DNA from: Candidatus Krumholzibacteriia bacterium
GTDB taxonomy: Bacteria > Krumholzibacteriota > Krumholzibacteriia > JAJRXK01
Assembly (NCBI GenBank): GCA_041484665.1
Contig: JBGPIA010000006.1
Coordinates: forward strand, 128,001-192,000
Reading direction: 5' to 3'
DNA: 64,000 nucleotides
A program made the position numbers and the translations under genes. This document shows, piece after piece, positions 20,701-46,664 of this stretch. How positions within the stretch are numbered: position 1 is the stretch's first letter; each line of letters begins with the position of its first letter. The notes below the pieces were generated by a model that saw only the letters and a program-made list of their open reading frames with translations, was not told the origin of the DNA and made no database searches.

Positions 20701-21060
20701 GATGGTCTGATCGGAAGCCGGATGGAAGGTGAGCCTGACCGGCTCACCGCCCGCGGACGGCATCAGGTAGACATCGTCGTTGCCCTCGTACTGCGCGGTG
20801 AACGCGATCCAGCGCCCGTCCGGCGAAACGCACGGGAAGCGCTCGTCGCCCTCGTACGCCGTGAGGCGCACGGCGACGCCTCCGGCCAGCGGGACCTTCC
20901 ATAGGTCGCCCTCCGAGGCGAAGACGATCATGCCCCCACCGATTCCGGGGTAGCGGTAGAAGCCGTCCGGCAGAGCCGGAGGCTCTGCGGCATCGGCTTG
21001 CGGGATCGCAAGGGAGAGTGCCACGAGCGAGGCGAGGGCGATCAGGCTGGCGACCTTCAT
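17713..21060 (-). CDS. Tricorn protease homolog (S41 family; PD40 propellers, PDZ)
   Basis: SPDG propeller repeats; WKRYKGGRA; WRLQRDFFYD; GELNVGH; GYLHL; DxRxNxGG; GSD catalytic Ser; GTRTWGG; IEGHGVDPD. Confidence 0.95.
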   Translation of the reverse strand: MKVASLIALASLVALSLAIPQADAAEPPALPDGFYRYPGIGGGMIVFASEGDLWKVPLAGGVAVRLTAYEGDERFPCVSPDGRWIAFTAQYEGNDDVYLMPSAGGEPVRLTFHPASDQTIGWTADGKILFRSRRDHPHGDFRTYTLFPQGGIPQMIPLEPAAWISFEPGGQRLALQKFGLEFHNWKRYKGGRAEDIWVGKLDPLAFDEVTHWEGKDAFPMWAQDGRIYFVTDRWGRPNLASMKPDGSDVQRLTHFADYDVRWPAMGGGKIVYQHKMDIWVYDLATGRNEQLPIQLPSDRLQLRERFVDPTANLGGWSLSKDGERIAIETRGDVFVARTHKKGLIRRITESSSARTQFPAFAPDGKTIATWTEQDGEEQLFLHAADNGAAPRQLGKQPSGWHFAPAWSLDGKRLAWGDEKYRLYVTDVASGNATPVDEGKWEISHYAWSPDSRYLAYVAVLENLFTQVRIWDAQAKASYAASDPMVNTFSPAWDLKGKYLYYLSDRFINPYPDRFEARFILDNATLPCVVALQDDGTLPFGARGDTDPVGASDDKKHDAKKGEKKEQDKATADKKGDQDDTPVGPIRIDFEGLADRLVEVPVDPGNYDDLRAIDGKLHWLNASSRGLMPHDADTNESPGAELQTYDFEKEKVSTVTSGVLAYQVSGNGKVLVYQTKDGFTRLEAGATEAPKDDAAKEAKIDLSGWSLRIDPRAEWAQMFHEAWRLQRDFFYDAKMHGVDWDGVWKQYGPLTTRISSRDDLEDMLGEMFGELNVGHAYHWGGDLRHGKQVGTGLLAADLDFDAASGFWKIRKIYRGDYPDPRWSSPLARPDLHVKPGQWLVAIDGKALVKGEDYLKRLANRAKQAVELSINDAPKLEGARRVVVEALANDTPVRYATWIRETRDYVDRKSHGQIGYLHLYDMGGLGLRQFARDYPPQWRKRALIVDDRWNHGGSVAPMILAHLDRKILAVGGTRYGNIDTTPSHAFHGYLACLINRQGGSDCETLALGFKQFGLGPVIGTRTWGGWIGIRGDKPLRDGGMITEPEFGGWDPQGKAWIIEGHGVDPDVELDLGPDGFLHGQDAQLDDAIDRLMGEIAKDPRDLAPAPPIVARPLQPVD

Positions 21061-22798: not shown

Positions 22799-24703
22799 TC
22801 AGATGCCGTAACGCTCCAGCAACTGCGTCTCCACGTAACGCCGCTGCGCATCCGTAGTCGCGATGCCATAGATCTGCAGGTCAGCCATCTGCAGCGAGAT
22901 GTTGTCGATTGGCCATCCGTTCTTGGCACCGATGCCGATGCTCGCTCCCGTGAACACCTCGAGCGGCGCGGTGATCGACGCATCGTGAGCGCGTTGGAGT
23001 CCATTGATGTAGATCGTCAGCCCATCGGTCTGCGAGAAGCGAAACGTGAACACCTGGTACTGGTCGTAAACGGGCCGCACCGTCATTGCCGTGAGCGTAG
23101 CGCTGCCACCGTGGGACACCGACACCGTGTTGTCGTTCGGAAAGCCGATGCGCAGCACCTGGTTCTGGACGTCTCCATCGCCCCACAGCCAGTACATCTC
23201 GAGGTTGTTGCCCGGCTGGTCCAGGCGCTTGACCACCGCGAAGATGGTGTAGTCGGTGTCGCGCATCGGCGTTCCGGAGATGCGCATCGAGCCTGTCGAG
23301 TAGGTTGCATCGTACTGAAACGACACGATCGGTTGGCCGTTGAGCTGACCGGTCAGATAGAGACCCGCAACCTGCGGACCACCGAATGCTGGTGCGGCGT
23401 CGCGATCGGCATGCCCTAGCAAGTCAGCCCATCGAGTGGCGCCGCGCGCACCGGAGTAGCTGACCGTACTCACGCCGTGATCGGCGCGGTACCAGGCGAT
23501 CCCCCGCTTCAGCGACTGACCGATCGGTGTGCAGTCCACCACATCGTAACTCGTGGCGACCTTCACCTTCAGCTGCTTCTCGGGATGGGCCGCGGCATTC
23601 ACGGTGTAGCTGAGCGGCTGGCCCGTGGTGATCGTTCCGCCCAACCGGATGAACAGCTCGAGGTCCGCGAAATTACCCATCAACGCCGAGCCGGCGAGGT
23701 CCGCCCGACCGCCGATGGCGTAGCCACCGACTTCTACCGAGCTCAGCTCGCTGATGTACTTCACGTCTGCACCGATACCACCGCTGGCGATCGCTCCGCT
23801 GAAGCTCGCGTCGATGGACGCCTCGATCTCCTGTACCGAGTCTGTCGACTGGATCAGCAGGTAGAAGATCCGCCCGTAGGTGACGCTCGACACGTAGGCC
23901 GCCGGATTGCCCGGGCCCACGTACTGGCTCAACTGCACCGCGGTCACGCTCGGCGCGAAAAAGCTCGCCGGATCGGTCGGCTGCTCGAACGCGATGGTGT
24001 AGTAGCTCTGCGTCAGCTTGACCAGGAAACGGTTGTACGCGACGTCGCTGGCATAGCGGAAGCTGCCCTGGATGTCCGTCGTCAGGTTGTTGTAGTTGGC
24101 GCGGATCGCGACACCGAGCTGCTCGCGCGAGCTGATGCGCTGCATGGTATAGGTCGTGCGCGCTGGCAGATCGCCCGGGTTGGCGGCGATGATCTGGTTC
24201 ATCGCGTCGTAGACGCTGCCCAGGCTCACCACGTCGAGCTGGCGGCTGGCCGAGCTGGCGCCGTTGACCAGGGTGATCACGATCCGGCCATTGCCACGGG
24301 CGACCGGGATGGAGGTCGGAGTCGCGTGGTCGAGGGTGGAGCCCTGCAAGAGGTTTCCGGGGAAGATGATCTGGCTGTTGGGGTCGAATTGCGGGTAGTC
24401 GGAGTAGCCCTCGATCAGATCGACGGTGTGGCGCGTGCAGAAATACTGGTCCACGCCGCTGCCGCTGGTGAACTCCTCGGGCGGGGACTCGGTGTGGCTG
24501 GGCACCACGTCCTGAAACTCCCCGCCCGAATTGAGAACGGCGGTGAGCTCGCCAGGGGGGCCGCCGGTGCCGCCACCGCCCGGAGCAGTGGGGTCGTCAC
24601 CGCTGCAGGCGGCGAGGAAAAGGAGGGACAGCATCGCGACGCCGATCATCCCCCAATGGGTCGATCGCGCTGCCGTCTGCGAGAGGGAACGGGTGGTGTG
24701 CAT
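22799..24703 (-). CDS. Thiol-activated / cholesterol-dependent cytolysin-like (CDCL) lipoprotein with C-terminal LamG/ConA-like domain
   Basis: Lipobox LAAC; IFPGNLLQG, QSYYTI, YVSSVTYGRIFYL and GQPLSYTV CDC core motifs; C-terminal WYRAD...YTIFAV...IYING lectin-like domain. Confidence 0.85.
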   Translation of the reverse strand: MHTTRSLSQTAARSTHWGMIGVAMLSLLFLAACSGDDPTAPGGGGTGGPPGELTAVLNSGGEFQDVVPSHTESPPEEFTSGSGVDQYFCTRHTVDLIEGYSDYPQFDPNSQIIFPGNLLQGSTLDHATPTSIPVARGNGRIVITLVNGASSASRQLDVVSLGSVYDAMNQIIAANPGDLPARTTYTMQRISSREQLGVAIRANYNNLTTDIQGSFRYASDVAYNRFLVKLTQSYYTIAFEQPTDPASFFAPSVTAVQLSQYVGPGNPAAYVSSVTYGRIFYLLIQSTDSVQEIEASIDASFSGAIASGGIGADVKYISELSSVEVGGYAIGGRADLAGSALMGNFADLELFIRLGGTITTGQPLSYTVNAAAHPEKQLKVKVATSYDVVDCTPIGQSLKRGIAWYRADHGVSTVSYSGARGATRWADLLGHADRDAAPAFGGPQVAGLYLTGQLNGQPIVSFQYDATYSTGSMRISGTPMRDTDYTIFAVVKRLDQPGNNLEMYWLWGDGDVQNQVLRIGFPNDNTVSVSHGGSATLTAMTVRPVYDQYQVFTFRFSQTDGLTIYINGLQRAHDASITAPLEVFTGASIGIGAKNGWPIDNISLQMADLQIYGIATTDAQRRYVETQLLERYGI

Positions 24704-25039
24704 GGTTCGGTCTCCAGGTCGGAGGTTCAAGAGGCTTCGAATGGAGATGCGGATTCGCCGACCGGAACGCGCAACGACGGTCTCGCCGGCCCAGGGTCCG
24801 GGCCGCGCCGGTCACGGAAACTGTTCTGTCCCAACGTATTGCTGGAGGGTCAGTTCTCACGGCGATCGGCGCCGCGGCGCCTGGCCCGCGGGGCTCCACG
24901 GCGGCCTGCGGGATGACCAGAGGCGCAGCATCGCCGTTGGAGGGAGCGGGGTCGGCTGGACTACCGTGGACCCGAGTGTCGAGCGGTTGTTTCGTGCGAT
25001 GTGCTCTGCCGTGACCTCGACCTTGAGCCCTGGCGCTCC

Positions 25040-25385
25040 AACCAGTGGTGGCCTCCATCATGGAAGGGAAGGTTTGGAGCCTGTCTCTTCGGTCGCACCT
25101 CGCCTGAGAACAGCACTGGGCGTGGTGCGGCCGAACCCATTCAACGCCATCGCCCAGATCGACTTCTCCCTCGCGCATCGAGGGCGCATCGATCTGGCCA
25201 TCCACAACGTTCGCGGGTAGTGGGTGCGATCCATCCTTGGAGAGGCGCTGGACCCAGATCAGCATCTCGCCGTGTGGGACGGTCGCTCGAGCTTGGGGTG
25301 TCAGGTAGCGAGCGGAGTGTACGTTCTCCAACTCCGCACGGATGGGCAGATCCAAACTTCGCGGCTGACACTCGTCAAGCGAGAG
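25040..25385 (+). pseudogene. Orphan FlgD-Ig tail remnant with in-frame stop
   Basis: RPNPFNAIAQIDFSL...IHNVRG*WVRSIL...WDGRSSLGCQVASGVYVLQL...RLTLVK; TAG at 25218-25220; no N-terminal domain. Confidence 0.75.
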
Positions 25386-25500
25386 ACCTACCACTGCAGT
25401 GGGCATGCGACGCAAAGTCCGACGGCATCTGCGTGGCGCTCTGGCGCTCGGCGTCGCGTTGGGCCTGGCGGCGTTGATCGACACCGGCGCATCGTCGGGC

Positions 25501-25614
25501 GCCGTTTGGATCGTAGCCAAGGACGGCAGCGGTCGAATCTAGACCATCCGACCCGCTGTCGACGCTGCTGCTGAGGGAGACGCGATCGCCATCAAGCCAG
25601 GGAAGTACACCTGA
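25501..25614 (+). pseudogene. Remnant of a pectin-lyase-like parallel beta-helix N-terminus
   Basis: Translates WIVAKDGSGRI*TIRPAVDAAAEGDAIAIKPGKYT*, matching the VAxDGSGDFxTIQxAVDAAxxGDxIxIxPGxY cap motif. Confidence 0.7.
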
Positions 25615-26707
25615 AGCGACGGTCTTTCCGCTGGACGACTTCCAGCCCGGCCGGACGCCGGGGGGCCGGGGGGGCGCCGATCAGATGCCGGTTGTCGGGA
25701 CCGAGTCCACGACCGTCAGAACTGGCACGGGTTGACGAGAGGAGTCATCGAGCGGCGGTCCTGGGTCACGAGGAGGGTCCATTCTCGTTCTTCCTCTCCA
25801 ACGTGGACCGATTGCCAGGCGTATTTGGGGAAGACTCTGTGGCTGATACACGAGGAGCGAAGCGGCCCAGAGGGAGAGGCAAGCGATTACGTAGTTCGGA
25901 GGCGGGGTCTCGCCAACGTGCCTCCACTCGCCCACCTTCGCGGTCGATCCCCGCGCAATCATCCCCGGGATCAGCCACGCATATTGAAGCCGATCATCTT
26001 ACCCAAGCCTTTCCGCCCGTAGCGTGATCTGGGTCTCGTTCCGGCCGAACAGGCGGCTCACTCCAACCGGCTCTATGATCTGTTGACCGCACCTCACGAC
26101 CAAGGAGAGGCTCAACAGAGTTGTCCTCACGGTTGGCGCAGGCATATGGCTCTACCGCATTTCGATCTCAGAACATCGAGGAAAGCTGGGCCGCGCACCA
26201 CATCGACGCCTGGACCCGCGTAGAATCGTATAGGATGAGGAACCTTCCAGGTCTCCGGCTTCGAATTCAAGATTGCGAATATGCCTTCGACAAGTTTTGC
26301 CATCGCCTTATCGTCGCGCGAGTTGGAAGTTATGCAGTCAGACCAAACGACCGCGTTGGCCTCCAAGCTGCAGAATAAGCGCACGCGGTAGGTCGAGCAC
26401 GGAATCCTTCCCCCCTCCCGTCTGATGGCGTGATCACCACGCTCTCGGGAAGCGCCCCTGCAAAGCCCGAACAGTCTCGACGTGAAGATGGCGCCGCAAT
26501 ACAGCGATTGCGGCGCTCTTTCCCGCGCTCAGGCTCGCCGCGAGAGGATGGTAGGGAGAGGGGTCCCCGTGCCCCGCGCGCCCGGGGTTACGGCTAAGGC
26601 CGGCCGGCGGTGAGCCGATAACATCGGAAGCGGCGGGCGCCGCGTTGTGCCCCAGCCAGGGGCCGCGAGAGCCGGGAGACCCTGCCCGCCGGCGAGGAGA
26701 TCGCACC

Positions 26708-27565
26708 GTGGGTGTCCTGTTGGGCGTGGCGGCCGCAATCTGCTGGGGGCTGGGTGACTTCCTCATCACGCACCTCACGCGCCGTATCGGGACGACCCGC
26801 GCCCTGATCTCCATCCAGGTCGCCAGCCTCCTAGCCTGGATGCTGCTGCTGCTCATCCGCCCTTCGCCCCCGGGCGGCACACCGCTCGTCTGGGCGATCG
26901 TTGTCGGCACGGCCATCTGCCACGTGCTTGGTCTGCTCTTCGTCTACCGCGCGTTTGAGATTGGTACACTTTCCATCGTATCCCCCATCTCGGCCGGCTT
27001 CGCGGTGGTCACGGCCGTGCTTTCGCTCGCGATGGGAGAGCGCCCCCCGGCGGCGGCCCTGGGTGGTGCGGGGCTCCTGATCGTGGGCGTCTTGCTGGCA
27101 ACGCGATCTGCGGGGGGGCCTTCGCAGCAGCGACCGAGTTGGACGGGAGTTCCCGAGGCCGTGCTCAGCGCGCTGGCCTTCGGCACGATGTTCTGGCTCT
27201 TCTATTTCTTCGTCGAGCCGAAGGTCGGTTACGCCTGGCCCTTGATCCTGCTGAAGACGATGGCGGTCAGCGGTTCGCTTCTGGCGTACGCTTCGAGGCG
27301 CCGCCGGGAGGAGGGGCAGAGATTCGCCCTCGGGCCAGGAGTGGTCTTGCTCGCCGTTGGGGCGGCAGCCGCCGACACCCTTGCGTGGCTCGCCTACATC
27401 CGGGGAATGGGCTCCACCTATGCCACGATCGTGACGGCGGTTGCTTCGCTGTTCAGCGTCGTCACAGTGCTCCTGGCTTGGAAGTTCCTCCGCGAGCGCC
27501 TCGCGGTCCACCAGTGGGCGGGCGTCGCCGCAATCCTGCTGGGGATTCTCCTGGTCAGCTCCTAG
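26708..27565 (+). CDS. EamA/DMT family transporter
   Basis: GAGGAG RBS + GTG; about 10 TM helices in two repeats (CWGLGDF, YRAFEIGTLSIVSPI, FLRERL..QWAG). Confidence 0.92.
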   Translation: MGVLLGVAAAICWGLGDFLITHLTRRIGTTRALISIQVASLLAWMLLLLIRPSPPGGTPLVWAIVVGTAICHVLGLLFVYRAFEIGTLSIVSPISAGFAVVTAVLSLAMGERPPAAALGGAGLLIVGVLLATRSAGGPSQQRPSWTGVPEAVLSALAFGTMFWLFYFFVEPKVGYAWPLILLKTMAVSGSLLAYASRRRREEGQRFALGPGVVLLAVGAAAADTLAWLAYIRGMGSTYATIVTAVASLFSVVTVLLAWKFLRERLAVHQWAGVAAILLGILLVSS

Positions 27566-27817
27566 CCCCGCCGCAAACCGGCAGTGATTGCCGTGGCTCA
27601 CCCGAACGCAGGCGCCCCTGGATCTCGCGGCATTCGGACCCGCCCGCTGCCGTGCCCCGCGCAACCGGCGGCAGGCCGCTCCGGGGGACTCCCGCCGGGC
27701 CTCAAGTTCTCCCTCGAGTTTGCCGATATGTCCTCCGACACGGGGCCCGCGCGCGGCGCCCGCGGCGCCCGCATGCGCCTGCACACCTGCATCGCCAGCG
27801 GAGGAGGGCTCCCCCTC

Positions 27818-28696
27818 ATGAACGGACGTCGACAGCTGATTCCGACGCTTCTCGCTTGCACCACGCTGCTCCTTGCCAGGGCCCCGGCTCTCGCCACCGA
27901 GATCCCCAGCGACCCGGTCATCCAGCCCGCACCGACCGCCGAGGTACCGGGCGACCCGACCGGGTCAGCTGCCGCAACACCCCGGGCCGCGGCTGCGCAA
28001 GCCACCTCAGCAGCCGGCGATCAGCCCGACAAGTTGGCGGGGGAGCGCCCAGCCCAGCCCGCAGCGTTGCATTGGCTCACCGTGGACTGGGACGCCTCGC
28101 TGGCGTCCAAGTACCTGTTCCAGGGGATCGACTACAGCGACGGCAAGCCAGTGCTCCAGCCGGAGGTCACGGTTTCCGTGAGATCCTTCTCGGCCATCCT
28201 GTGGGTCAATCACGACCTCCACACGCAGCAGCCCAACGAGGTGGATCTCTTCCTCCAGTACAACGTTGGAATCCCGCGGCTCGACCTCACGACGGGGTAT
28301 GCGCGCAATCACTACCCCCACCGCGAAGGGTGGGATCCCTCGCAGGAAGTCTACCTCGATCTGTCCTGCGACGCCCCACTGAGCCCCTCGCTAAGCGTCC
28401 ATTACGATTTCGACGCCGGGAAGGGGAGTTACTCCACGCTCTCCCTCGACCGCGAGGTTCCCAATCCTCTGCGAACCATGTCCGCCGGGCTGAAGCTCTA
28501 CTACCAGAACAACTACTACGAGGCCACGGGCTTCCCGTCCCTCGAGCTCCATATCGGCACCGAGCAGGCCATCGGCCCGTTCAAGATCACCCCCTCGATG
28601 TCGCGCTTCATCACCTGGCCGAACGGAGGCTTCCGAGACGAGAACGCGGTGTCGGCCACCTGGTATCTCGCGGTCAACGTCGCCCAGACCTTCTGA
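27818..28696 (+). CDS. Outer-membrane beta-barrel, TorF/Gcw_chp-like putative porin
   Basis: Signal peptide; Pro/Ala linker; SKYLFQGIDYSDGKPVLQP (cf. SDYxFRGxSQT...PAxQ); NEVDLF; C-terminal Phe. Confidence 0.75.
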   Translation: MNGRRQLIPTLLACTTLLLARAPALATEIPSDPVIQPAPTAEVPGDPTGSAAATPRAAAAQATSAAGDQPDKLAGERPAQPAALHWLTVDWDASLASKYLFQGIDYSDGKPVLQPEVTVSVRSFSAILWVNHDLHTQQPNEVDLFLQYNVGIPRLDLTTGYARNHYPHREGWDPSQEVYLDLSCDAPLSPSLSVHYDFDAGKGSYSTLSLDREVPNPLRTMSAGLKLYYQNNYYEATGFPSLELHIGTEQAIGPFKITPSMSRFITWPNGGFRDENAVSATWYLAVNVAQTF

Positions 28697-28710
28697 GACG
28701 GGCGCGACTT

Positions 28711-30342
28711 ATGTCACCGGCCACCGATGAGAGGCCCCGGAAGACGCCCTACGTCGTGGCGACGGGGTTCACGACGGCGTGCCTCGGGGACGAGCGCACC
28801 CTGCGCGAGTTCGTAGTCGGCGACCACGTCATGAACAAGATCCTCGCCAAGGGGGAAAACGCTGTCCTCTATCTCATCAACGACAGCTACGATCCCCTCA
28901 CCCCTCGGCAGCTGCGGGTGGGCGTTAACAAGGACGAGAAGCTATTCGGGCAGTTCGAGCCCTACTGCGGACGCCCGATTGCCGAGATCCCCGACCCATT
29001 CGGCTGCCACCAGAGCTACGCGCAGCACTTCGCCCGCGCGTTGCTGCGGCGCCTGCACGCGCTGGACATCCACCCAGTACTGGTGAACTCCTACGAGTCC
29101 TACGAGAAGGGTCACTACGCCGGATTCGTATCCTCGACCATCGCGAGCTATCACAGGATTCAGGAGATGCTCGCAGCGCGATTTCCACGCTACACGATGC
29201 GCAACCTGTTCCGGCCGCAGTGCCCGAAGTGCCGGTGCATCGACGCGACCAACGTTCGCGCAGTCGAGGGTCTTGCGCTCCGCTTCGACTGCGATCGGTG
29301 CGGGACGACGACGAGCGAGGAGTTCCCTGCGGTCCGAGGCAAGCTCAGCTGGAAGCTCGACTGCGCGGCGCGATGGAACCTCTACGGCATCGACATGGAG
29401 ACCTTCTCGAAGTCCCACATCGCGGAACTGGGGACGTTCGAGATCTCCCGGTTCATGTCGCTCAACTTCTACGGGAGCAAGGTACCGACGATCGTGAAGT
29501 ACGGAAGCGTGAAGATCCAGCGCGAGCTTTCCTACAAACTCCTGGAGATTCTGCCCCCGAAGATCTTCAAGCGGCTGTTCGTCTCCAACCTGGGCCGCGA
29601 TCTCGAACTGAACCGTGACTCGGTCGAAAGCTTCTGCCACAAGTTTGCGGTCAGGCCAGGGCTAAGTTACGTGGACTACGTTCGCCGCGAGCTGCCCCAC
29701 CGTGCGCTACACGAGAACAGACCGGCCGGGCCAGACTCGGGATCCCAGGCGCTGCCGGACACGGCCATTTCCGACGATGCGCTGGTGTCCTTCGGCAACC
29801 AATTCTCCCGCTTCTACTACTCCAAGGACTATGGACTGCGCTTCCCCGACTCCGGGACAATCGCGTCGGCCAACCAGGCCGCCGCGCAGACGGCCCGGCG
29901 CTGGATCCAGCGCGCGCTGACGATCCGCGAGGGTGTCACCGACACGCGCAAGAACGCTCACGCTCTCATCAAGTCGTTCTTGCTCGCGGAGGACAGTGCG
30001 CCCCACGTGTTCCAGTACCTGCGGCGGCTGTTCGGCCAGACCGAGGGGCCCAGTATCACGACTCTGTTGTCTACCCTTCCGCGCGAGTACTTGACGACGG
30101 TCACGCTGCTGTTGGCTGGATACGACGGAATCGTCGAGTGCGCCGAGACCTGGAGCGCTGGGTCCCCGAACGGCAGCCCGATCGCGCCCGGGGCGGGGGC
30201 GGTGGCCGGGCTCCTGAGCTGCGTCCAGGAGCTGGCGGCATCAGGCGTCGATGCGGATCTCGCGTCGGCGACCGATACGGCGTCGAGTTCTCCCTCCAGC
30301 CCGACCCCCGCTCTGCCCGCCACCTCAGCTCCACTTCGGTAG
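28711..30342 (+). CDS. Class I lysyl-tRNA synthetase paralog lacking HIGH and KMSKS motifs
   Basis: GRPIAEIPDPFGCHQSYAQHF, CxxC pairs, GKLSWKLDCAARW, GIDME...KSH and C-terminal FGQTEGP are LysRS1 hallmarks; HIGH position reads DERT and the KMSxS loop is absent. Confidence 0.85.
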   Translation: MSPATDERPRKTPYVVATGFTTACLGDERTLREFVVGDHVMNKILAKGENAVLYLINDSYDPLTPRQLRVGVNKDEKLFGQFEPYCGRPIAEIPDPFGCHQSYAQHFARALLRRLHALDIHPVLVNSYESYEKGHYAGFVSSTIASYHRIQEMLAARFPRYTMRNLFRPQCPKCRCIDATNVRAVEGLALRFDCDRCGTTTSEEFPAVRGKLSWKLDCAARWNLYGIDMETFSKSHIAELGTFEISRFMSLNFYGSKVPTIVKYGSVKIQRELSYKLLEILPPKIFKRLFVSNLGRDLELNRDSVESFCHKFAVRPGLSYVDYVRRELPHRALHENRPAGPDSGSQALPDTAISDDALVSFGNQFSRFYYSKDYGLRFPDSGTIASANQAAAQTARRWIQRALTIREGVTDTRKNAHALIKSFLLAEDSAPHVFQYLRRLFGQTEGPSITTLLSTLPREYLTTVTLLLAGYDGIVECAETWSAGSPNGSPIAPGAGAVAGLLSCVQELAASGVDADLASATDTASSSPSSPTPALPATSAPLR

Positions 30343-30352
30343 GAGGCGAATC

Positions 30353-31207
30353 ATGAAACGAGCGATGTTTCGATCCTTCCCGTTTGCGCTCGCGGCGCTC
30401 CTTGTGCCGCTCGCAACTCTCAGCATCCTAGCTGGATGCCGGACGCGCGGCGAGCCGGCGAGCCGCGCCGACAAGCATGACGACTCACTAGCCAGAGTCC
30501 AGCGCGCCGGCGTCCTTCTCTGGGGCGCGGACGTGGTGGGCGGCGTGCCCTACGTGTACGAAGACCCCCACCGGCCGGACACCTACATCGGGTTCGAGAT
30601 GACGATCGCGCAGGCGATCGCCGATGGGCTCGGAGTCCAGCTCAAGCTCGTCATCAAGGCGTGGGATACGCTGATCCCGGAACTCCAGCGTGGGTCTTTC
30701 GACTTAGCCATGAATGGGATCGAAGACACCGAGGACCGCGACAAGATCGTCCTGTTCTCAGAGCCCTACTTCGTTTACGCGCAGCAGCTGACGGTCCGCA
30801 AGAACACGTCGGGGATCGCGTCGCTCGACGACCTCAGGGACAAGCGGGTGGCCACGCTCTCGGGAACGGCCGCAGAGGACATTTTGCGGCAGACCGCCGG
30901 GGTCCAGATCGTCACTAACCCCGAGATCATCTACAGCTACCGCGACCTCGAGGAAGGGAAGGTGGAGGCCGTACTCCTGGACACCCCGATCGCGGCGGCC
31001 TACGGAGCCGCAAACCCCAAGCTCCAGAATGTCGGGCAGTCGTTCGGGGAGGGGCGCTACGTGATTGCGTTTCGCAAGGAGGACAAGAGTCTCCGGGACG
31101 CGATTGATCGGGTGCTCCAAAGTCTGAAGCAGAACGGCGAGCTCAAGCGGATCTACGAGCGCTGGGGAATCATGGACCAGCACCAGGCACAGATCGGGAT
31201 TCTCTGA
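30353..31207 (+). CDS. Polar amino-acid substrate-binding lipoprotein (family 3 SBP)
   Basis: AGGAGG RBS; lipobox LAGC; GFE, WDTLIPELQRGSFDL, FSEPYF, DLxxKRVA, LEEGKVEAVLLD. Confidence 0.92.
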   Translation: MKRAMFRSFPFALAALLVPLATLSILAGCRTRGEPASRADKHDDSLARVQRAGVLLWGADVVGGVPYVYEDPHRPDTYIGFEMTIAQAIADGLGVQLKLVIKAWDTLIPELQRGSFDLAMNGIEDTEDRDKIVLFSEPYFVYAQQLTVRKNTSGIASLDDLRDKRVATLSGTAAEDILRQTAGVQIVTNPEIIYSYRDLEEGKVEAVLLDTPIAAAYGAANPKLQNVGQSFGEGRYVIAFRKEDKSLRDAIDRVLQSLKQNGELKRIYERWGIMDQHQAQIGIL

Positions 31208-32658
31208 TGAGCGCTCGTGCAAACCTTGTGGGCGAGATGACGCGAGAGATGGGCGCGGCGTACGAGGTGATCTCGCCCGTCACGGGTACGACCCTCGATC
31301 GCGTGGCGCTGCTCGGCAAGGAGGAGATCGCCGCACTCCTCGCGCGACTGTCGGGACCGCCGAAACCATTGGCCCACAGGGAGGTCTTCGCGTTCCTCCA
31401 CCGTTTTCGGGAACAGCTCGTGGCCCACCGGGATGTCTTACTCGAGCGAACGGTCTTCGAGACCGGCTTCACCGGCAGGGATTGCTCGGAAATGGTCGAC
31501 GGGGCCGTCGAATTCTTGAAGGACTTCGAAACCTACGCCCATGATCAGTCATCCCGGAGCCAGGTCATCCGGCACTCGTACTCCACCCTGAGCCAGCGGG
31601 ACATGCGGATCACCGACCGGCCCTTCCGCTGTGTGGCCGCGGTCGTTCCCCAGAACGCCTCGCTCACGCTGGGCATCACGATCATCGCGTCGGCACTCTA
31701 TGCAGGGTCGCGAATCGTCCTGCGCCCCTCCTTGCAGTGTGCTTCTACCGGCGCCCTGCTGGCGGACATCGTGCGCGAGAGCGATCCACCCTGGGCATTC
31801 GTCGAGATCGTGAACAGCCTAGCCTCAGACTTCCTGGATGCCTGCTTGGCATCGGACTCAGTAGATCTGATCCACTACATCGGGAGCAACCAGTACGCCC
31901 TCCCGGTGTTCCAGCAAGCCTTTGCGGCCGGAAAGATCTGCCTGCTCGACGGTCAGGGGAACGGCCTGCTCTACCTCGACCGCACGTTCCCCCAGGAAAC
32001 GGCCGTAGAGCTCATCACTTCCGGAGCGACCCGTTTCAACGGGGAGACTTGCACCTCCGTCAACGGAGTCCTGATCGAGGAGAGCGCCTATGTCGCCGTG
32101 CGGGAGGCCTTGGTCGAGTCCTTCCGGCAGCTGCGCGTGGGGAGCCCGCTGGAGGAAACAGTTCAGATCGGCCCGCTGTTCAGCGAAAAGCAGGCCGTGG
32201 GGTTGCGCCGGACGCTACAGGACACGCCAAACGGCCGCATCCTCTGCGGCGGTACTGTCAACGGCGCCTACTTCACGCCGGCGATCATCGAGGGCGTAGA
32301 CATGGCCGACGCGATTGCGCGCGAGGGATTCTTCGGCCCCTGCATCTGGATTCACCCAGTCCGCCAGGAGACCCTCTGGAAATGGATCCGGGCAAACCGG
32401 TTCCCCCTAAGCGACACCGTGCTCGCGACCCGTAAGGACCTCATTCGCAATTTCGCGCGGAACTCGAGGGCAGCGCGCATTTGCGTAAACCAAGATCCGT
32501 CGGTCGAGTCGATGTTCGAGCCTTGGGGCGGATATCCTCCAAGCGGCTTCAACCCCGTGTCGGTCTGGATGCAGAAGTACCGCCAGACGTTTCAGCTCGA
32601 TGGCCGGCTGTCGGAAATCCTCGGAATCCCATCGGACCACGCGCCCGACACGGTGTAA
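31207..32658 (+). CDS. Divergent aldehyde dehydrogenase family protein
   Basis: VISPVTG, ETG, VPQN, LRPS, YIGS, catalytic NGETC, IGPL, FFGP, PWGG; coupled to the SBP gene (TGATG). Confidence 0.88.
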   Translation: MSARANLVGEMTREMGAAYEVISPVTGTTLDRVALLGKEEIAALLARLSGPPKPLAHREVFAFLHRFREQLVAHRDVLLERTVFETGFTGRDCSEMVDGAVEFLKDFETYAHDQSSRSQVIRHSYSTLSQRDMRITDRPFRCVAAVVPQNASLTLGITIIASALYAGSRIVLRPSLQCASTGALLADIVRESDPPWAFVEIVNSLASDFLDACLASDSVDLIHYIGSNQYALPVFQQAFAAGKICLLDGQGNGLLYLDRTFPQETAVELITSGATRFNGETCTSVNGVLIEESAYVAVREALVESFRQLRVGSPLEETVQIGPLFSEKQAVGLRRTLQDTPNGRILCGGTVNGAYFTPAIIEGVDMADAIAREGFFGPCIWIHPVRQETLWKWIRANRFPLSDTVLATRKDLIRNFARNSRAARICVNQDPSVESMFEPWGGYPPSGFNPVSVWMQKYRQTFQLDGRLSEILGIPSDHAPDTV

Positions 32659-32672
32659 TCCACCGGCCGCCC

Positions 32673-34589
32673 ATGCTTCCGCGCATCTCCATCCGGACAA
32701 AGTTGATTCTGATCACGGTGGGGACGATCGTGGTCGCGAACCTCATCATGGCATTCTTCGTCCGGGGCCTGGTCTACCAGAACATCGTAAACAACAAAAT
32801 GACCATGGTGGACGTCCTGACGGCCTCCCTCGTGCACGACATCAAGTACGACGCAGAGACCCGCCAAAAGGAGGACGTCCAGGCGGTCATCGCGAAGTAC
32901 ATCACCTATTACCGCATTATCCGCAACATATCCTACTACAATACCGACCGCCTGGACATCGCCGACTCGGAACCGCACAGCATCGGCGCGAGCTCCGAGG
33001 ATCCCGACGTCATCGCAGCGGTCAGCATGGCGAAGCCCAGCCTCCACGTGACGCGGCCGGACTGGAAAAACCTCGGCATCCGCTCCGTGGCGCCCGTGCT
33101 GCAGGGCTCGAAGCTCGTCGGCGCAATTGCACTCGACGTTTCCATCGAGGACATCCAGCTAACGCTGTCGGCTATCGACCGCCGGATTGCCATGATGGTC
33201 GTCGCAAAGGCTTTCTTGGTTTCGCTCGTGCTGTTCTATTTCCTGAGAATCATCATCCTGACACGCCTCAGCCAGCTGACCGCGGCGACGCATCAGGTCG
33301 CGGCGAAAAACTACGACATCCACGTGCTGGACTCCGGACGGGATGAGCTGGGCGAGCTCGCGCAGGCGTTCGACCTGATGACACGCGATCTCAAGAGCAG
33401 CAAGCAGGAGATCGAGCGGTACAACAAGCACCTCGAGGAGATGGTCCAGGACGCGACCGCTCAGCTGCAGAAGGCGTTCGAGGACCTAAAGAACGCCCAA
33501 AGCCAGCTGGTTCTGAACGAGAAGATGGCGTCGCTGGGCGTGTTGATTGCAGGCGTCGCCCACGAGATCAACACGCCGGCCGGGGCGATCCTCAACGTAT
33601 CGCGGCATCTAGAGAAGAAGACTCATTCACTCCCGCGGATGCTTGAGGCGCTCAAGGCCGACCTGGAAGTCCCCGCAGGAAGAATTGCGCCGTGCCTCGA
33701 GGAGGTCATCGAATCGGCGTGCAAGGCGCGCGAAGCCGTCTCCTACAAGGATACAAAGGCCCTGGAATCGCTCCTGCGAGCGCAGGGCATTCCCGACCCC
33801 CATCAGAAAGCCAGCGACCTCGCCAAGCTCAACTTCACGAACCCGGAGAAGATCATCGAGTACAGTGAGTGTTTCGTTCATCCGGCATTCTTCGCGGTGG
33901 TTGAAGCGTTTGGAAGCATTGCGCAGGCGGCGAAGATCTCGGAGACCAGCTCCCAGAAGATCGCGGAGATCGTCCGGGCGCTGAAGTACTACGCGTACTC
34001 CGACAAGGACAAGGTCGAGGTCATCCAGATCAACGAGTCGATTACGACCGCGCTCATCCTGCTGCGCAATCAGCTCAAGGACACGGTGACGGTCGCGACC
34101 GATTTCGACCCGGAGCTTCCGAGGGTCCCCTGCACTAGTGAAATCCACCAAGTGTGGACGAACCTGCTCACGAACGCGTACGACGCGATCGAAGCGATCG
34201 GAGAAGGATACCACGGCGAGATCGCGATCAGCACAAGCCGTCGCGGGGGACAGATCGTGATCACCATCACGGACAACGGCGTCGGAATTCCGGAGGACAA
34301 GCTCGGCAAGGTCTTTGATCCGTTCTTTACGACGAAGGACATCGGGAAGGGCACTGGCCTGGGCCTCTGCATCGTGTCGGGGATCGTCAAGAAGCTGCGG
34401 GGAGAGGTCCACGTCCACAGCCGCCCTGGCCGTACCGTGTTCGAGGTTGGGCTGCCGATCGGGACAAGCGAGAGGCCGTCCGACGGGGAGCGGGACCAAC
34501 ACGACGAGCACATGGGCGCGGTCGATGAAAGCGCGCTCGTGCTCGCGCCGCGAGGGCCGGCGGTTAAGGAGACGGGCGATGGCGGCTGA
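32673..34589 (+). CDS. Membrane sensor histidine kinase (periplasmic domain, HAMP, HisKA, HATPase)
   Basis: Two TM helices; [33 protein letters not shown]-box [30 protein letters not shown]. Confidence 0.95.
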
Positions 34590-36420
34590 CCCGGCGGAGA
34601 TTGCAGAGGCGCCGGCGCCTGTCGATCAGCACATTCTGTGCGTGGACGACGACCCGGACTTCTTGAAATCCCTCGAGTTCTTCCTGCCCGAGCAGATCAA
34701 CCAGAGCGGGTCCACCGACTTCTGGTATCGCTTCCTCTTCCTCGACAACCCCAAGGAGGCCCTCGGCGCGCTCAGGGACCTCACGAGCGAGCGCGAGACC
34801 GTAGCGATGGTGATCAGCGATCAGAAGATGCCGCAGATGAAGGGAACGGAGTTCCTCGGGGAAGCGAAGAAGATTGCCCCCGACAGTATCCGGGTCCTCT
34901 TGACTGGTCATGCCGGTATCGAGTCGGCGATTACGGCGATCAACGAACACCTCTTGGACAAGTACGTCACGAAGCCGATCGAGAACGAGCACGATTTCAC
35001 GGTGAGCATCCGTCACCTGCTGCAGAAGTTCCAGATGCAGCACACGATCGCGAAGCAGGCTCAGATTATTCAGGCCCTCTACGCCTTTTCGAATAAGCTG
35101 AACTCCATCGAGGACTTCCAGAAGACGCTCGACTGCATCATCTCCTTCACCGGGGAGGTTGTCCGCGGTCGTAGCACGTCGATTCTCCTTCTGGAACAGG
35201 ACGAGCTGCGGATGGTCGCCGCCCAAGGCCTTTGGCCGGAGGGGATCTGCGCCGTCAAGATCCCGGCGAGTGACCCGATCGGCGCCCAGATCCTCCAGTG
35301 CCGCAGAGCGAGGGTCTCGAAGGCTGCCGAGACCAAGGCCGTCGAGGCGAACCCCACTGAGGTAAGCCCGGCCGAGTCGAGTAGCAGCTTCCCCGAAATC
35401 GTCCGAGCGGGCTACGGCGGGTCGCAGGACACGTCGGCGCTCTATGCTGGGCTAGTGTCCGGGGACCAACCCCTGGGCCTGCTCTACGTCACTCGAAGAC
35501 CGGATGACCCGGGTTTCGTCGAGACGAATGTCGATACGCTGACGTACATCGCCAGTAGCGCCTCCATCGCCTTGCACAACCAGCTCAACCGCGTGCGACT
35601 CGAGAACGCCTATGGCGAGTCGCGCGTCCATGCCGCTGCCCTGGGCGAAGCCAATGGGAGGCTGCAGATCCTGGACCGACTGAAGACGGACTTCCTTTCG
35701 TTCATCTCGCACGAGCTTCGAACCCCCCTGGCTATCATGTCGGCGGTGGGGCTCGTCGACCGTTCCTCGAGCGCGAGCGAGCAGGAGGAGGCGCTGGCGA
35801 TTGCGCAGTGCGGTTACGATCGGCTCGAGCGGTTCGTCGCGAGAGGTCTACAGTACTTCGACTGGTTGGCGACGAAGCCGGTGAAAAACTCAGGGTCTGC
35901 GGACCTGATCGGTGTGGTACGAGCCGTGGCCGGCGCACTCCCGGAGCTCGATGGCCCCGACGTCGATCTCGAGATCTCGCTCCCTGAGGGCCCCTGTCCT
36001 GTCGAGATGGACGAGACCTACGTCGCGGAGGTCGTGCAGGTACTGCTGGAGAACGCGCTCAAGTTCTCCCCAGGCTGCAAGAAGATCCACGTGGCGGTCG
36101 CGACACGGCCGGGCGCAGTGACGCTCACCGTGGTCGACGGGGGGTGTGGTTTCCCGCCGGAATTCTCGCGCGAGATCTTCCGTCCCTTCACGATCATCGA
36201 CACGGCGCACCACGGGGAGGGGACCGCGCTCAGCCTCGCGAAGGCGAGCGCAGTGGTCGAGGCGCATGGAGGCTGCATCCGAGCGGAGAGCCAGGGGATC
36301 GGGCAAGGGGCGAGATTCATCGTCTCGTTCCCACCGGCGGTGCGGTGCCCGCAGGACGCCGAAAACGACCTGGCGCCGCAGGTCGCCGAGAGCCGCTCGC
36401 GGCCAAACCCCGTGCATTAG
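34579..36420 (+). CDS. Hybrid cytoplasmic kinase: REC-GAF-HisKA-HATPase
   Basis: ILCVDDD, ISDQKMP and TKP receiver motifs; GAF region; [29 protein letters not shown]; overlaps upstream stop. Confidence 0.92.
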
Positions 36421-36679
36421 CCGACCCGCAGCCGCTGCCCCCGCTTTCTCGACGCGGTGACCGTGACGTCCGGCCGGGGCGGGGGCGACTCCCGCCCAGC
36501 GGGACCAGCACTCCCAGGGGCAGCCCGACATGCCAGCCAGCCGCGGGCGCACCGTGACCATCCTAGACCTGCAGGCCCGTGCTCCCGCTCGGTGGATCGT
36601 CGAGTTCGAGCTGCCGGTGAGCGGGAAGGGCGCTGTCGCCCGCGATGCCTGACCCGCTCCGGCGGCTGCCCAGAGCGCC

Positions 36680-37275
36680 ATGTGGGCGCCTACGGACCGG
36701 GGCCGCGCTTCGTCACGGTGCTCGACAGCGCGCTCCCTCCCCTGGACCGTGACCTCGATCGCCTGGCCGAGTCGCTCCACTGGGTCACGCGCGAGCCCAG
36801 CTTCGCATGCCTCGCCCTGCGCTTCGTGGGCTTGGAGCACATCGCTCTCCCTGATCCCGACGCCATCTCTCTGGCCAGCAAGCTGCAGCGACTCCCGCGC
36901 TGGCTGGGGGTGCGGCGCGGGATCGCAATCCTACTGTGGCAGTTCCTGGGGCGACTCGTGGAGGTGGTCGGTTCGCTGGGCCCGTTGCTGTCGCTGCCGC
37001 GATCCCTGCGCGCGCCTTTGGGCGGCCGCAGCGCGCGCCTGGGCGAGAGCGTGTCCCTGGGGCCCGCGTTCGTGGGTCCCGCCCCCACGCTCTTGGCGCG
37101 CATCGGTCCCGTGCCACTCGTGGTCGACGTAGCGTTGGATCGCGACGCGGCCTGGCGGGCCGAGTTGGAGGAGCTGCTCACGACCTGCGCGCCGGCGGCG
37201 ACCGAGCACGGCGACGAGCTGGTGCTACGTGTGGAGGATCGGCGCACGGTCCTGGGCGACCGTTGGCACGCGTGA
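36680..37275 (+). pseudogene. Possible degraded hypothetical gene
   Basis: The second half of ORF 36457-37275 has protein-like Leu-rich composition but no clear start or recognisable motif. Confidence 0.25.
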
Positions 37276-37603
37276 CTCGCCAGGACCAGCTGCATGACGG
37301 GGTGAGAGGGGGCCGGAATGTCGTCGGGTCGCGAGCCCGGCGGGATCCTACGCCGCAGGAGCCAGTCTTTGAACTTAGACGCGACAGGGCGCGGAAGCGG
37401 TTCCTGGCGGCCGCGCCGCAGGACTAGCGGGTGCGCATCTGGTGGCGAAGTAAACCCCGCGGCCCCGTAGATCAGACGGATAGGTCGACGGTTTCCCAGG
37501 CGCCGCCAGCCCTGCGCCCCGGTGCGCTCGTTTCGCAGCCTTCGGACGTAAGGGAGGGTGTTGACGCTTCCACACCCTTCCCGGAGGCCGCCATGGGACC
37601 CAT

Positions 37604-37651
37604 ATCTGGAGCAATCACATGAACGCGATCTGGAGCAATCACATGAACGCG
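37604..37651. repeat. Perfect 24-bp tandem duplication containing RBS and start codon
   Basis: atctggagcaatcacatgaacgcg x2. Confidence 0.92.
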
Positions 37652-37915
37652 CGCCGAGCCATCGTCGGCCGCATCCTGGTCTGCTGCGCGGCGGCGCCCG
37701 CATTGGCGCAGACGCCGTCGGGAACGGCGTTCACCTACCAAGGGCACCTGGAGAGCAACGCCAGCCCAGCGGCCGGGAGCTTCAACATGGTGTTTACGCT
37801 CTGGAGCCATCCAACGCTCTCCGCGACGGCCTTTCAGGTCGGCCCCACGCTCACCTTCGACGGCGTCAGCAGCCCTCCCGCACCGATCACCGTGACGAAC
37901 GGCCTGTTCACGGTG
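37643..37915 (+). pseudogene. Truncated N-terminus of a TAFTYQG-type large surface/tail-fibre-like protein
   Basis: Signal peptide + AQTPSGTAFTYQGHL...FTLW...VTNGLFTV, breaking off where such proteins usually continue LDFG. Confidence 0.7.
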
Positions 37916-37919
37916 CAGC

Positions 37920-38012
37920 AGGGTCTACCGCTCGTGCCATCCCGAGCGGACGGCCCAGTACCGGCTCTTCGAGCAGCACTTCGATCGCTCCCTGCTCGAG
38001 CACGAGGAGCCG
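37920..38012 (+). mobile_element. IS91-family transposase N-terminal fragment
   Basis: Translates RVYRSCHPERTAQYRLFEQHFDRSLLEHEE, resembling the VYRPRHPERTxLYR...HFxxFxxxYEE start of IS91-type transposases. Confidence 0.6.
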
Positions 38013-38555
38013 AGCGTCCCCGGCACAGGGTACACCGGCCGAGTTCAACAGCCCCTACCGCCCCCAAGCAGTGAAGCTCGGGACCGAGATCATTTCGAGG
38101 ACGGTCGCGTTCGGGAAGAGCTAATCGTTCCAACCTCGAACTCCGAGGCCCCGCTGGTTGACGTGGACCGCGTTCTCAGGTCAGGGCGGGGCCGCTCATT
38201 CTTGCTGACAGCACCGGGGTTTGCGAGGCAGCCGCCGGCGCGTGTTCTCAGTTCCGAAAAGCGTCGCGGGCGGGGGACCGGATTGCAGCTTCGGAATCGC
38301 GCAGGAGCGTCTCGAAGTCCTGATTTCTGCCTTCGGGGACGCCCGGCGATTCGCTCGCTTCGGGGCGGGTGTCAGGTCACGTCGTAGCTAGAGCAGCCCG
38401 TCCCACCTCGTCACCCAACCGGGATACGCCGACGATCCCGCGAAAAATCTGGAACGCCTGGTGGCAGCGCCGAAGGTCGTTACTCCCTCGATCGGACCCC
38501 GCGCTCGCATGTTAAGATGTTCCCGGGTCCTTCTTACTCGACCGGGGGACTTCCG

Positions 38556-39140
38556 ATGTCGACCGAGATCCGCACCCAGATCACAAGCTTGCTGCGGGAG
38601 CTGGAGATCGAGTCGACCAATCGTCGGGCCACCACCGAGCGCCTGCTCGAGGCACTCTACCCGGAGCTTCGCCGCCTGGCCGCGGCCCTCTTCCGGCAGG
38701 AGCGCGCGAGCCACACCCTGGAGCCCACCGCGCTCGTTCACGAAGCCTACATCCGGCTGGTCGACCAGGACGGCGCCGACTGGAAGAACCGCGCGCACTT
38801 CCTGGGCGTCTCCGCCCGAATCATGCGGCAGGTGCTGGTGGATCATGCCCGACATCGACTGGCGGAGAAGCGGGGCGGCGGCTGGGAACGGGTAACCCTG
38901 AGTGACGCGGTCGAGCTCGCCCGCGGGGACGACGTCGACCTCCTCGATCTCGAAGACGCCCTCGAGCGATTCGCCACCGTCGATCCACGGGCCGCCCGAG
39001 TGGTGGAGCTGCGGGTATTCGGGGGGCTGACCGTCGAAGAAACCGCCCACGTCCTCGAGGTCGCCGCACGAACCGTGGACGGCGACTGGGCGATGGCCCG
39101 GATGTGGCTGGGGAAGGAGCTGCGGGAGGATTCCACGTGA
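38556..39140 (+). CDS. ECF sigma factor, TIGR02999-like (kinase-associated type)
   Basis: [35 protein letters not shown]...[15 protein letters not shown]. Confidence 0.93.
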
Positions 39141-46403: not shown

Positions 46404-46664
46404 TGCACGGGATGCCCAAGAACGAGCGGGGGAGCCTCGATCCCTCGATGCCGGGTCAGCGCTCCACGCCTCTGGGCAGAGGGCCGCTGGAGGGTGGAGG
46501 GCGCCGCCCATCTATTATCAACCGCGTCAATGAACCGCGTCCAGTCGCTGGGGGAAGGCTCGATCGGGCGGATGGGGTGCCGGCCGGATCGAGCGCCACG
46601 GACGGCGACTCGTCCAGCGGGTGAGTCCTCGGATCGGGGCACCCACAAGGGCCGTGGCGCGCAA

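Follow-up and report, generated by a model that had tools for sequence, protein, structure and literature searches.

The locus described here lies at positions 26,708–36,420 of a 64,000-nucleotide stretch of DNA, below called the window, from a Candidatus Krumholzibacteriia bacterium (assembly GCA_041484665.1, contig JBGPIA010000006.1, positions 128,001–192,000 of the forward strand). It comprises seven genes (Table 1). One of them codes for a paralog of class I lysyl-tRNA synthetase (LysRS1), for which the label LysX is used in this report, and the others for a divergent aldehyde dehydrogenase (ALDH), a solute-binding protein (SBP), two signalling proteins with receiver (REC) and histidine kinase domains distributed between them, an outer-membrane porin, and an inner-membrane EamA protein of the drug/metabolite transporter (DMT) family. 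The cluster was originally predicted to make, export and sense an amino-acid-derived metabolite and to be built around the paralog of an aminoacyl-tRNA synthetase (aaRS), and its organization proved to be as predicted: all seven genes are co-oriented on the plus strand and, with the start codons chosen, the junctions from the porin gene onward measure +14, +10, −1, +14 and −11 nucleotides, i.e., no gap exceeds the 14 bp expected. The gap between the EamA and porin genes is 252 nucleotides, and alternative in-frame starts of the latter are possible. The evidence presented below points to a small-molecule signalling circuit not described before.

Table 1. Genes of the LysX cluster, with positions counted from the first nucleotide of the window
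Product	Positions	Strand	Supporting match or feature
EamA/DMT-family inner-membrane transporter, 285 aa	26708..27565	+	PF00892, 72.7 bits
Outer-membrane beta-barrel, Gcw_chp/TorF-like	27818..28696	+	PF09694, 23.8 bits (cut-off 24); TIGR02001, 22.9 bits (cut-off 47.15)
LysX, class I LysRS paralog, 543 aa	28711..30342	+	PF01921, 148 bits, residues 10–271 only
SBP_bac_3 orphan periplasmic lipoprotein	30353..31207	+	PF00497, 113.5 bits; lipobox LAGC
Divergent ALDH	31207..32658	+	PF00171, 198 bits
HK1, membrane HAMP histidine kinase	32673..34589	+	HAMP + HATPase_c
REC-GAF-HisKA-HATPase hybrid protein	34579..36420	+	Pfam domains

LysX

The relationship of LysX to LysRS1 extends over the whole protein. 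A profile of 23 LysX relatives matches the solved LysRS1 1irx with an E value of 9e-30, and an AlphaFold2 model of LysX (predicted local distance difference test score, pLDDT, 85) has 1irx as its best Foldseek match (E 1e-21). As this match covers 534 columns, the whole LysRS1 architecture is kept; the Cys4 knuckle is present as well, and the C-terminal ca. 60 residues are disordered. With 127.2 bits the protein stays under the equivalog cut-off of TIGR00467 (147.55 bits).

What distinguishes LysX from LysRS1 became apparent in an alignment of 15 LysX sequences (six of the window type and nine of the type found in Armatimonadota, described below) with 12 canonical LysRS1-like sequences. The HIGH position, occupied by H-x-G-(N/H/G/S) in all 12 canonical proteins, reads LGDER in 14 LysX sequences and LGDGR in one. 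The KMSKS loop, a segment of 12–23 residues with an MSSSKG-like motif, is deleted in 15 of 15, and the Trp of the canonical D-W-P-x-R-W is replaced in the same 15 by a Cys specific to LysX. Equivalents of the 1irx residues G27, T29, R40, E41, W218 and Y268, which we take to form the lysine pocket, are invariant in the alignment of 23 LysX sequences, and the His equivalent to H240 is a Tyr in the Armatimonadota-type proteins. Lacking the HIGH signature and the entire KMSKS loop, LysX would be no ordinary amino-acid-activating enzyme.

Elsewhere the genome of the window codes for a canonical LysRS of class II, which scores 573 bits (cut-off 427.6), and it has no second strong PF01921 match besides LysX. 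LysX is therefore regarded, on the strength of its sequence, as an extra, non-translational paralog predicted to be incapable of ordinary adenylation. Of the marks of a functional LysRS1 it shows the fold and lacks HIGH, KMSKS, a TIGR00467 score above the cut-off and the position of the cell's LysRS. Having lost both ATP motifs and acquired new invariant residues, the LysX family has clearly left translation, and it has been kept under strong selection beside an atypical ALDH and signalling proteins in distant phyla. Net charge was considered as a proxy for tRNA binding by LysX and rejected, as it gave no consistent signal: in 21 sequences it is near neutral and variable, from −10 to +11.

The aldehyde dehydrogenase

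The ALDH of the window falls far under all NCBIfam equivalog cut-offs, despite its clear membership in PF00171. Its residues were assigned from an alignment to a solved ALDH and from a family alignment of 21 cluster-linked sequences, in which the catalytic Cys (C282, the equivalent of Cys302) is invariant and N150 (the equivalent of Asn169) nearly so, and EPWGGY forms the C-terminal motif. Two Glu residues, presumably those numbered Glu268 and Glu399 in the standard scheme, have been replaced: the general base within LELGG is an Asp in 21 of 21 sequences, the motif now being L-x-D-G-x-G-N, and the Glu of EEIFGP is an invariant Gly. An ALDH that keeps the nucleophile and has no hydrolytic base would fit a thioester resolved by an agent other than water, or an enzyme working in the reductive direction.

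Gene neighbourhoods

A pattern search gave 36 genome loci with LysX relatives, whose neighbourhoods were analysed by tblastn with the seven window proteins and by all-against-all clustering of open reading frames (ORFs). Two layouts can be distinguished. In the first, type A, the order LysX-SBP-ALDH is found, as in the window, in 19 of the 36 loci, the titles of the records naming Nitrospirota, Eisenbacteria, Gammaproteobacteria (Competibacteraceae and Oleiphilaceae), a proteobacterium and unclassified bacteria. HK1 comes next in 18 of the 19, the 19th reaching the end of its contig, and the REC protein is present in 17. The second layout, type B, occurs in Armatimonadota and Abditibacteriota. 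Here the SBP and the kinase are replaced by a protein of ca. 900 residues with roughly 8–10 hydrophobic segments followed by (GAF)-GGDEF-HD-GYP; LysX comes directly after it and is followed by a porin-like protein with a signal peptide and no Pfam match. The ALDH (nine loci) and often EamA are encoded on the opposite strand, and four type B loci contain an additional small-molecule N-methyltransferase of the NNMT/PNMT family.

Over both types, an ALDH lies near LysX in 31 of the 36 loci. Nineteen of the 36 have at least 4 kb of sequence on both sides, and 18 of these include an ALDH. The corresponding figures are 30 (18 of the 19) for a signalling protein, 19 (11 of the 19) for the SBP, 19–20 (10 of the 19) for any porin, and 13 (8 of the 19) for EamA. 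Exceptions are L006, in which LysX is followed by Crp and nor genes and only 783 nucleotides are available upstream, L018, with LysX and a porin alone, and L036, a short contig. In the variant locus L017 the order is HAMP-PAS-GGDEF, porin, LysX, ALDH, a TonB receptor and a different kind of SBP. The gene-neighbourhood search that had been proposed as a check on the unit thus found LysX with its ALDH in nearly every adequately covered locus, and it confirms the cluster as a conserved functional unit whose arrangement is far from chance.

In two Oleiphilaceae loci (L015:1-3550 and L016:3130-7702) the arginine succinyltransferase pathway genes astA, astD and astB are located directly upstream of LysX. 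Another locus, L074 (365-2707, protein P0022), codes for LysX fused to a C-terminal EAL domain with canonical motifs. The fusion sits inside an otherwise normal LysX-SBP-ALDH-HK1 cluster, with a DUF6399 ORF between the ALDH and HK1 genes and a REC-PAS-HisKA protein as the receiver.

The company of signalling genes invites an explanation in which LysX has no catalytic role: a pseudo-synthetase that binds lysine, tRNA-Lys or a nucleotide in the cytoplasm and, as a sensor or adaptor, modulates the kinase or the enzymes of cyclic di-GMP (c-di-GMP) turnover, much as GCN2 is regulated by a domain resembling HisRS. In that case the module would combine external amino-acid status, read by the SBP, with internal status, read by LysX. 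The loss of both ATP signature motifs from a protein that keeps its fold and several pocket residues agrees with this, as do the linkage of signalling proteins to LysX in 30 of the 36 loci, the position of LysX directly after the GGDEF-HD-GYP sensor in Armatimonadota-type loci and the LysX-EAL fusion in L074. This fusion is, however, the only one among the 120 relatives listed, with none among the best 150 representatives; a separate search for longer LysX fusion proteins also found none, which is weak evidence. The invariant GDER and Cys look catalytic rather than decayed, and the near-obligate ALDH with its conserved catalytic Cys, the porin and the methyltransferase would be left unexplained, so we consider a purely regulatory LysX unlikely.

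Co-occurrence and distribution

The association of the genes was followed in 151 genomes of the phylum to which the genome with locus L007 belongs. LysX occurs in 11 of them; the SBP subfamily (E ≤ 1e-50; actual values ≤ 1e-132) occurs in the same 11, always beside LysX, and the ALDH subfamily (E ≤ 1e-100) in 10 of these, the contig of the 11th ending beside the SBP gene. None of the three is found in the other 140 genomes. In this sample LysX and the ALDH are near-obligate partners that occur exclusively together, and the genes for the putative synthase and the putative receptor (LysX, ALDH and SBP) are co-inherited.

With the SBP as the seed, a scan of metagenomes yielded 80 loci, in 70 of which the SBP is at least 60% identical to that of the window. 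At this identity LysX lies upstream of the SBP in 49 of the 53 loci with at least 600 nucleotides upstream, and the ALDH downstream in 45 of the 49 with at least 600 nucleotides on that side. In L089, L091, L094 and L106, and perhaps in L049, unrelated genes precede the SBP.

The first four of these loci are low-GC metagenome contigs. In L094 genes for a Shedu SduA-like protein and an ion channel are located upstream of the SBP-kinase pair, and in L089 an insertion sequence (rve) transposase gene follows the SBP-kinase module. Ten loci, L111–L120, represent a sister SBP subfamily, 47–51% identical, with TLSGTAAED or AMNGIE patterns and no cluster partners.

In the window's own phylum LysX was found in the window's genome alone among the 201 genomes searched, and its distribution is therefore patchy. 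DNA near-identical to positions 27800–36420 (at least half of the sampled words) is present in 11 sediment-metagenome runs, of which one may represent the source sample, and no RNA runs are among those listed.

The sensor and its output

The SBP is highly conserved, with a mean column identity of 75% over 18 sequences from several phyla. Its conserved neighbourhood contains no permease or ATPase of an ATP-binding cassette (ABC) transporter; it is an orphan located beside a kinase with a periplasmic domain, the arrangement known from LuxPQ- and TorTS-type systems. HK1 consists of a first transmembrane segment, a periplasmic domain of ca. 145 residues, a second transmembrane segment, HAMP, a dimerization and histidine phosphotransfer domain with a long insert, and HATPase; a hydropathy scan places the hydrophobic segments at residues 7–25 and 170–188. 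The periplasmic domain is conserved and bears a WalK/sCache-like hint: residues 6–260 match the WalK-like model NF033092, and one relative has a sub-threshold Cache_WalK match.

That the SBP feeds the kinase had been proposed by analogy with LuxP and LuxQ. In a model of mature SBP with HK1 residues 27–169, three runs gave ipSAE values of 0.61, 0.51 and 0.61 (median 0.61), compared with 0.02 for the best of three controls. The runs share at least 90% of their contacts, and the pLDDT of the partner is 91. The ipSAE mark was calibrated on solved complexes, 116 of 157 of which reach it, and on mismatched pairs, of which 2 of 215 do, counts that hold only roughly here as alignments made for the present analysis were used. 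The modelled contacts involve invariant segments on both sides, AWDTLIPELQ, NGIEDTEDR and TLSGTAAED in the SBP and residues 51–59, 118–123 and 140–148 in HK1. Modelling thereby supports the view that the SBP docks on HK1 at its periplasmic domain, and the SBP has no transporter partner; to this extent the proposal holds.

The nearest solved relatives of the SBP are binders of Gln, Arg or Lys/Arg/Orn. In the SBP family, the positions corresponding to what we take to be the alpha-carboxylate and alpha-amino contacts of the glutamine-binding protein GlnBP hold an invariant R, G and D, and an invariant Glu takes the place of a Thr. The retained positions and the Glu-for-Thr replacement suggest a ligand that is amino-acid-like and possibly cationic.

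The gene after HK1 in type A loci always codes for a protein with a receiver domain at its start, the window's REC-GAF protein being the presumed phospho-acceptor of HK1. Its output part is HisKA-HATPase in the window, in Eisenbacteria and in some others, and GGDEF-EAL, in the form REC-(GAF)-GGDEF-EAL, in the Nitrospiraceae, Competibacteraceae, Oleiphilaceae and unclassified loci tested. Given these GGDEF-EAL outputs, the GGDEF/HD-GYP sensor of type B and the EAL fusion in L074, the module is tied to c-di-GMP in most lineages. This output, whether through GGDEF-EAL or GGDEF-HD-GYP proteins, was overlooked in the original prediction.

The properties of the sensor bear on another explanation, according to which the cluster serves to detect and process a substance from the environment, either a basic amino acid or something resembling an amino acid. 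This substance would enter through the porin and be detected by the SBP and HK1, which would adjust c-di-GMP or a phosphorelay in response; EamA would take it up, and LysX and the ALDH would convert or detoxify it in the cytoplasm. This would agree with the ligands of the SBP's solved relatives and with the alignment of its invariant R, G and D with the presumed GlnBP ligand positions. Sensor-only loci exist, a porin is a passive channel, and the cluster adjoins the astA-astD-astB arginine catabolism genes in the two Oleiphilaceae loci; moreover, amino-acid sensing that feeds into c-di-GMP is known, as far as excerpted accounts of L-arginine studies go. Yet in the 151 genomes the SBP subfamily is never found without LysX, which would be surprising if the protein sensed a common nutrient. 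The cluster encodes no more than two enzymes and lacks a high-affinity importer, the output includes no transcription factor for a catabolic operon, and LysX has no motifs for amino-acid activation. On balance, a module serving an external compound seems rather doubtful.

Porins and EamA

The porin gene was predicted to provide, together with EamA, the passage of the metabolite across both membranes. The translated protein has a signal peptide and a C-terminal Phe. PF09694 is matched at E ≤ 0.01 by 10 of the 11 members of the porin family, the window copy being borderline. A Gcw_chp porin is encoded directly upstream of LysX in 10–11 genome loci and in many metagenome loci. The porin-like protein of type B is modelled as an all-beta barrel with OmpM1, OmpU and Omp32 as the best structural matches (E about 3e-9, TM-score about 0.57). 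Homology of the Gcw_chp-type and Armatimonadota-type porins was considered and rejected (hhalign probability 14.7%). The recurrence of a porin, with two unrelated families filling the role, argues that solute passage across the outer membrane is part of the module's function.

EamA, with about 9–10 hydrophobic segments in a hydropathy scan, is a frequent neighbour and not a universal one, and so a weaker member of the set than the porin; in the metagenome scan it is present within 5 kb in one locus. Of the two transport components predicted, the porin is supported as a recurrent part of the module and EamA is no constant one.

EamA shows a weak resemblance to ArnE in its C-terminal half (E 4.6e-4), a likeness that bears on modification of the cell envelope. 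LysX would in this case transfer a lysyl group, e.g., from Lys-tRNA, to a lipid or sugar carrier, the ALDH would tailor it and EamA would flip the product outward, all under the control of the two-component system, as Arn is regulated by PmrAB. tRNA-dependent aminoacylation of lipids by LysRS-linked MprF is known, according to the excerpted text of PMC2922099. Such a pathway would be expected to bring a glycosyltransferase, an acyltransferase or an MprF/Fem-type gene, none of which is in the conserved set; EamA is no universal member either, and neither a dedicated SBP nor a porin would be expected. Envelope modification is accordingly considered very improbable.

Proposed function

One reading explains why the enzymes and the sensor are inherited exclusively together, why the SBP has no transporter, why porins and now and then a methyltransferase accompany them, and why the output is non-transcriptional: LysX and the ALDH would produce a lysine-like metabolite, which is released and then sensed in an autoinducer-like or autocrine circuit. 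We hold this reading tentatively, its chances being somewhat short of even. The evidence is strong that LysX and the divergent ALDH are constant partners in the cytoplasm and that the porin belongs to the module's set, and the best explanation of the module as a whole is a self-contained unit of signalling and metabolism with a patchy occurrence across phyla.

In the proposed mechanism, LysX would still hold a lysine-like amino-acid moiety, without adenylating it. Because it would be unable to adenylate, it may take a pre-activated substrate such as Lys-tRNA, or place the amino acid where its partner can use it. The ALDH, with its Cys and without the Glu, could then form or resolve an acyl-enzyme, giving a lysine-derived aldehyde, imine or acid. 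Release of the product would involve EamA, in clusters that have it, and the porin; once in the periplasm, the product would be read by the SBP-HK1 pair, which would reset a phosphorelay or the level of c-di-GMP, or, in type B, by the membrane GGDEF-HD-GYP sensor. In a more specific version LysX would be a novel type of enzyme acting on aminoacyl-tRNA, which removes the lysyl group from Lys-tRNA (or binds lysine itself) and passes it on to the Cys of the ALDH. The resulting amino aldehyde would cyclise to a compound of the imine or piperideine type, N-methylated in some lineages and representing a class of bacterial autoinducer not known before, which would act through the SBP and the kinase on c-di-GMP in at least five phyla. 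All these details together are quite improbable.

Several points weigh against the autocrine reading. The substrate, the product, the direction of flux, the export and the phosphotransfer to the REC protein are what we infer, and the metabolite may be consumed rather than made; DMT transporters and porins, for their part, can run in either direction. With both ATP motifs gone from LysX, known aaRS chemistry is inapplicable, the net charge of the protein lends no support to tRNA binding, and the LysX-EAL fusion of L074 also fits a regulatory role. An EamA ortholog lies within 8 kb of LysX in only 13 of the 36 loci, and none (E ≤ 1e-20) was found in five of five genomes without a local copy, the completeness of these genomes not being given. 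In L089, L091, L094 and L106, and perhaps L049, the SBP, kinase and REC genes occur without LysX or the ALDH within the available flank, so the sensor can exist alone; the idea of a self-contained circuit is supported by the co-inheritance of enzymes and sensor in the 151 genomes and qualified by these four or five loci. The cluster has no transcription factor for feedback, and related genomes are non-independent observations.

Flanking sequence

Between 24500 and 38000 no riboswitch or other RNA family was detected (Rfam, E ≤ 1), the counts of promoters and terminators in scans were no higher than in shuffled sequence, the window contains no tRNA genes, and no meaningful repeats flanking the cluster were found. 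PADLOC gave no match to a defence system except one 17-bit hit. The G+C content of the cluster dips to 0.61–0.64 against about 0.67–0.70; recent transfer was considered on account of this dip and dropped, as the third-position G+C of the cluster (0.81–0.85) equals that of the flanking genes.

About 2 kb on each side (24900–26650 and 36420–38500) contain no ORF with a Pfam match or a strong third-position G+C bias, and a perfect tandem duplication of 24 nucleotides is located at 37604–37651. Just upstream of the cluster, at 22799–24730 on the minus strand, there is a gene for a 643-aa protein with a Thiol_cytolysin domain (cholesterol-dependent-cytolysin-like, 100.8 bits) and Laminin_G_3, unusual in an environmental high-GC bacterium. 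Farther out lie genes for a tricorn-type protease (17713–21060, minus strand), an extracytoplasmic function (ECF) sigma factor (38517–39140, plus strand) overlapping a Ser/Thr kinase with tetratricopeptide repeats (TPR; 39104–41776, plus strand), and a TPR-CHAT protein (43125–46511, minus strand).

Comparison with known systems

No published description of the LysX family or of the cluster was found in the literature searched, which comprised articles without their supplements. Paralogs of class I LysRS are almost unreported, the excerpted text of a survey of more than 2500 genomes giving one case (PMC5388404). Should the LysX-ALDH pair make the ligand of the SBP-kinase pair, the cluster would represent a new signal chemistry and a new input into c-di-GMP signalling in poorly studied environmental bacteria; should LysX be a sensor instead, it would be a bacterial case of a synthetase-like domain used in signalling.

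LysX shares with LysRS1 (1irx, PF01921) the motifs PDPxxCH, DxxDPL, GKLxW(K/R)xD and E-x-F-(G/S)-K, the whole-length fold, the zinc-knuckle region and the C-terminal helical domain. It differs from LysRS1 in having GDER in place of HIGH, no KMSKS loop and an invariant Cys in place of Trp, and in its setting within a signalling cluster. Cyclodipeptide synthases are class I aaRS derivatives as well; they use aminoacyl-tRNA, and in them HIGH has given way to a new signature at the corresponding loop, as far as the excerpted text of PMC2922099 describes them. They may be seen as a precedent, by analogy, for a class I derivative employing aminoacyl-tRNA in place of ATP. The likeness is confined to the shedding of the ATP motifs, the use of tRNA by LysX being hypothetical; cyclodipeptide synthases are small proteins of TyrRS/TrpRS-like origin without anticodon-side domains, whereas LysX has the whole LysRS1 architecture. 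In glutamyl-tRNA reductase, a Cys enzyme reduces an aminoacyl-tRNA via a thioester to an amino aldehyde. It offers a model for the reading in which LysX and the ALDH would act on Lys-tRNA, with the differences that the reductase does not belong to the ALDH family and that its partner GluRS is a normal synthetase.

The sensing half of the module has closer counterparts. In TorT-TorS an orphan SBP is bound to the periplasmic domain of the sensor kinase, and in LuxP-LuxQ a periplasmic binding protein without a transporter sits on the periplasmic domain of the kinase and reports a self-made molecule; the solved SBP-kinase complexes covered by the excerpted text of PMC8050422, from which these descriptions come, involve SBP families other than SBP_bac_3. 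TorT is a Peripla_BP_1 protein with trimethylamine N-oxide as its ligand and a DNA-binding regulator of a respiratory operon as its output, and the system has no aaRS paralog or ALDH; the porin of the present cluster probably belongs to a family named 'TorF family putative porin' by NCBI. LuxP belongs to Peripla_BP_4, and the domain of LuxQ is of the tandem-PAS/dCache type, in contrast to the SBP_bac_3 protein and the WalK-like domain of ca. 145 residues found here, and, unlike in LuxS/LuxPQ, the putative synthase genes lie in the same operon as the sensor and the output is often c-di-GMP. In the PruA/PruR/DcpA system of Agrobacterium, the periplasmic binding protein that governs a GGDEF-EAL enzyme reads an excreted, self-made pterin, according to the excerpted text of PMC11194511. 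PruR acts directly on the c-di-GMP enzyme, whereas the SBP described here would act via a histidine kinase and a receiver, and the enzymes, the fold of the binding protein and the ligand are all different. By analogy, a secreted product of the cell's own metabolism that is sensed via a periplasmic binding protein, with control over c-di-GMP or kinases, has precedents in LuxPQ, TorTS and the Pru system. The module thus combines a previously undescribed enzyme family around LysX with a sensing half that resembles known SBP-kinase circuits built from different folds.

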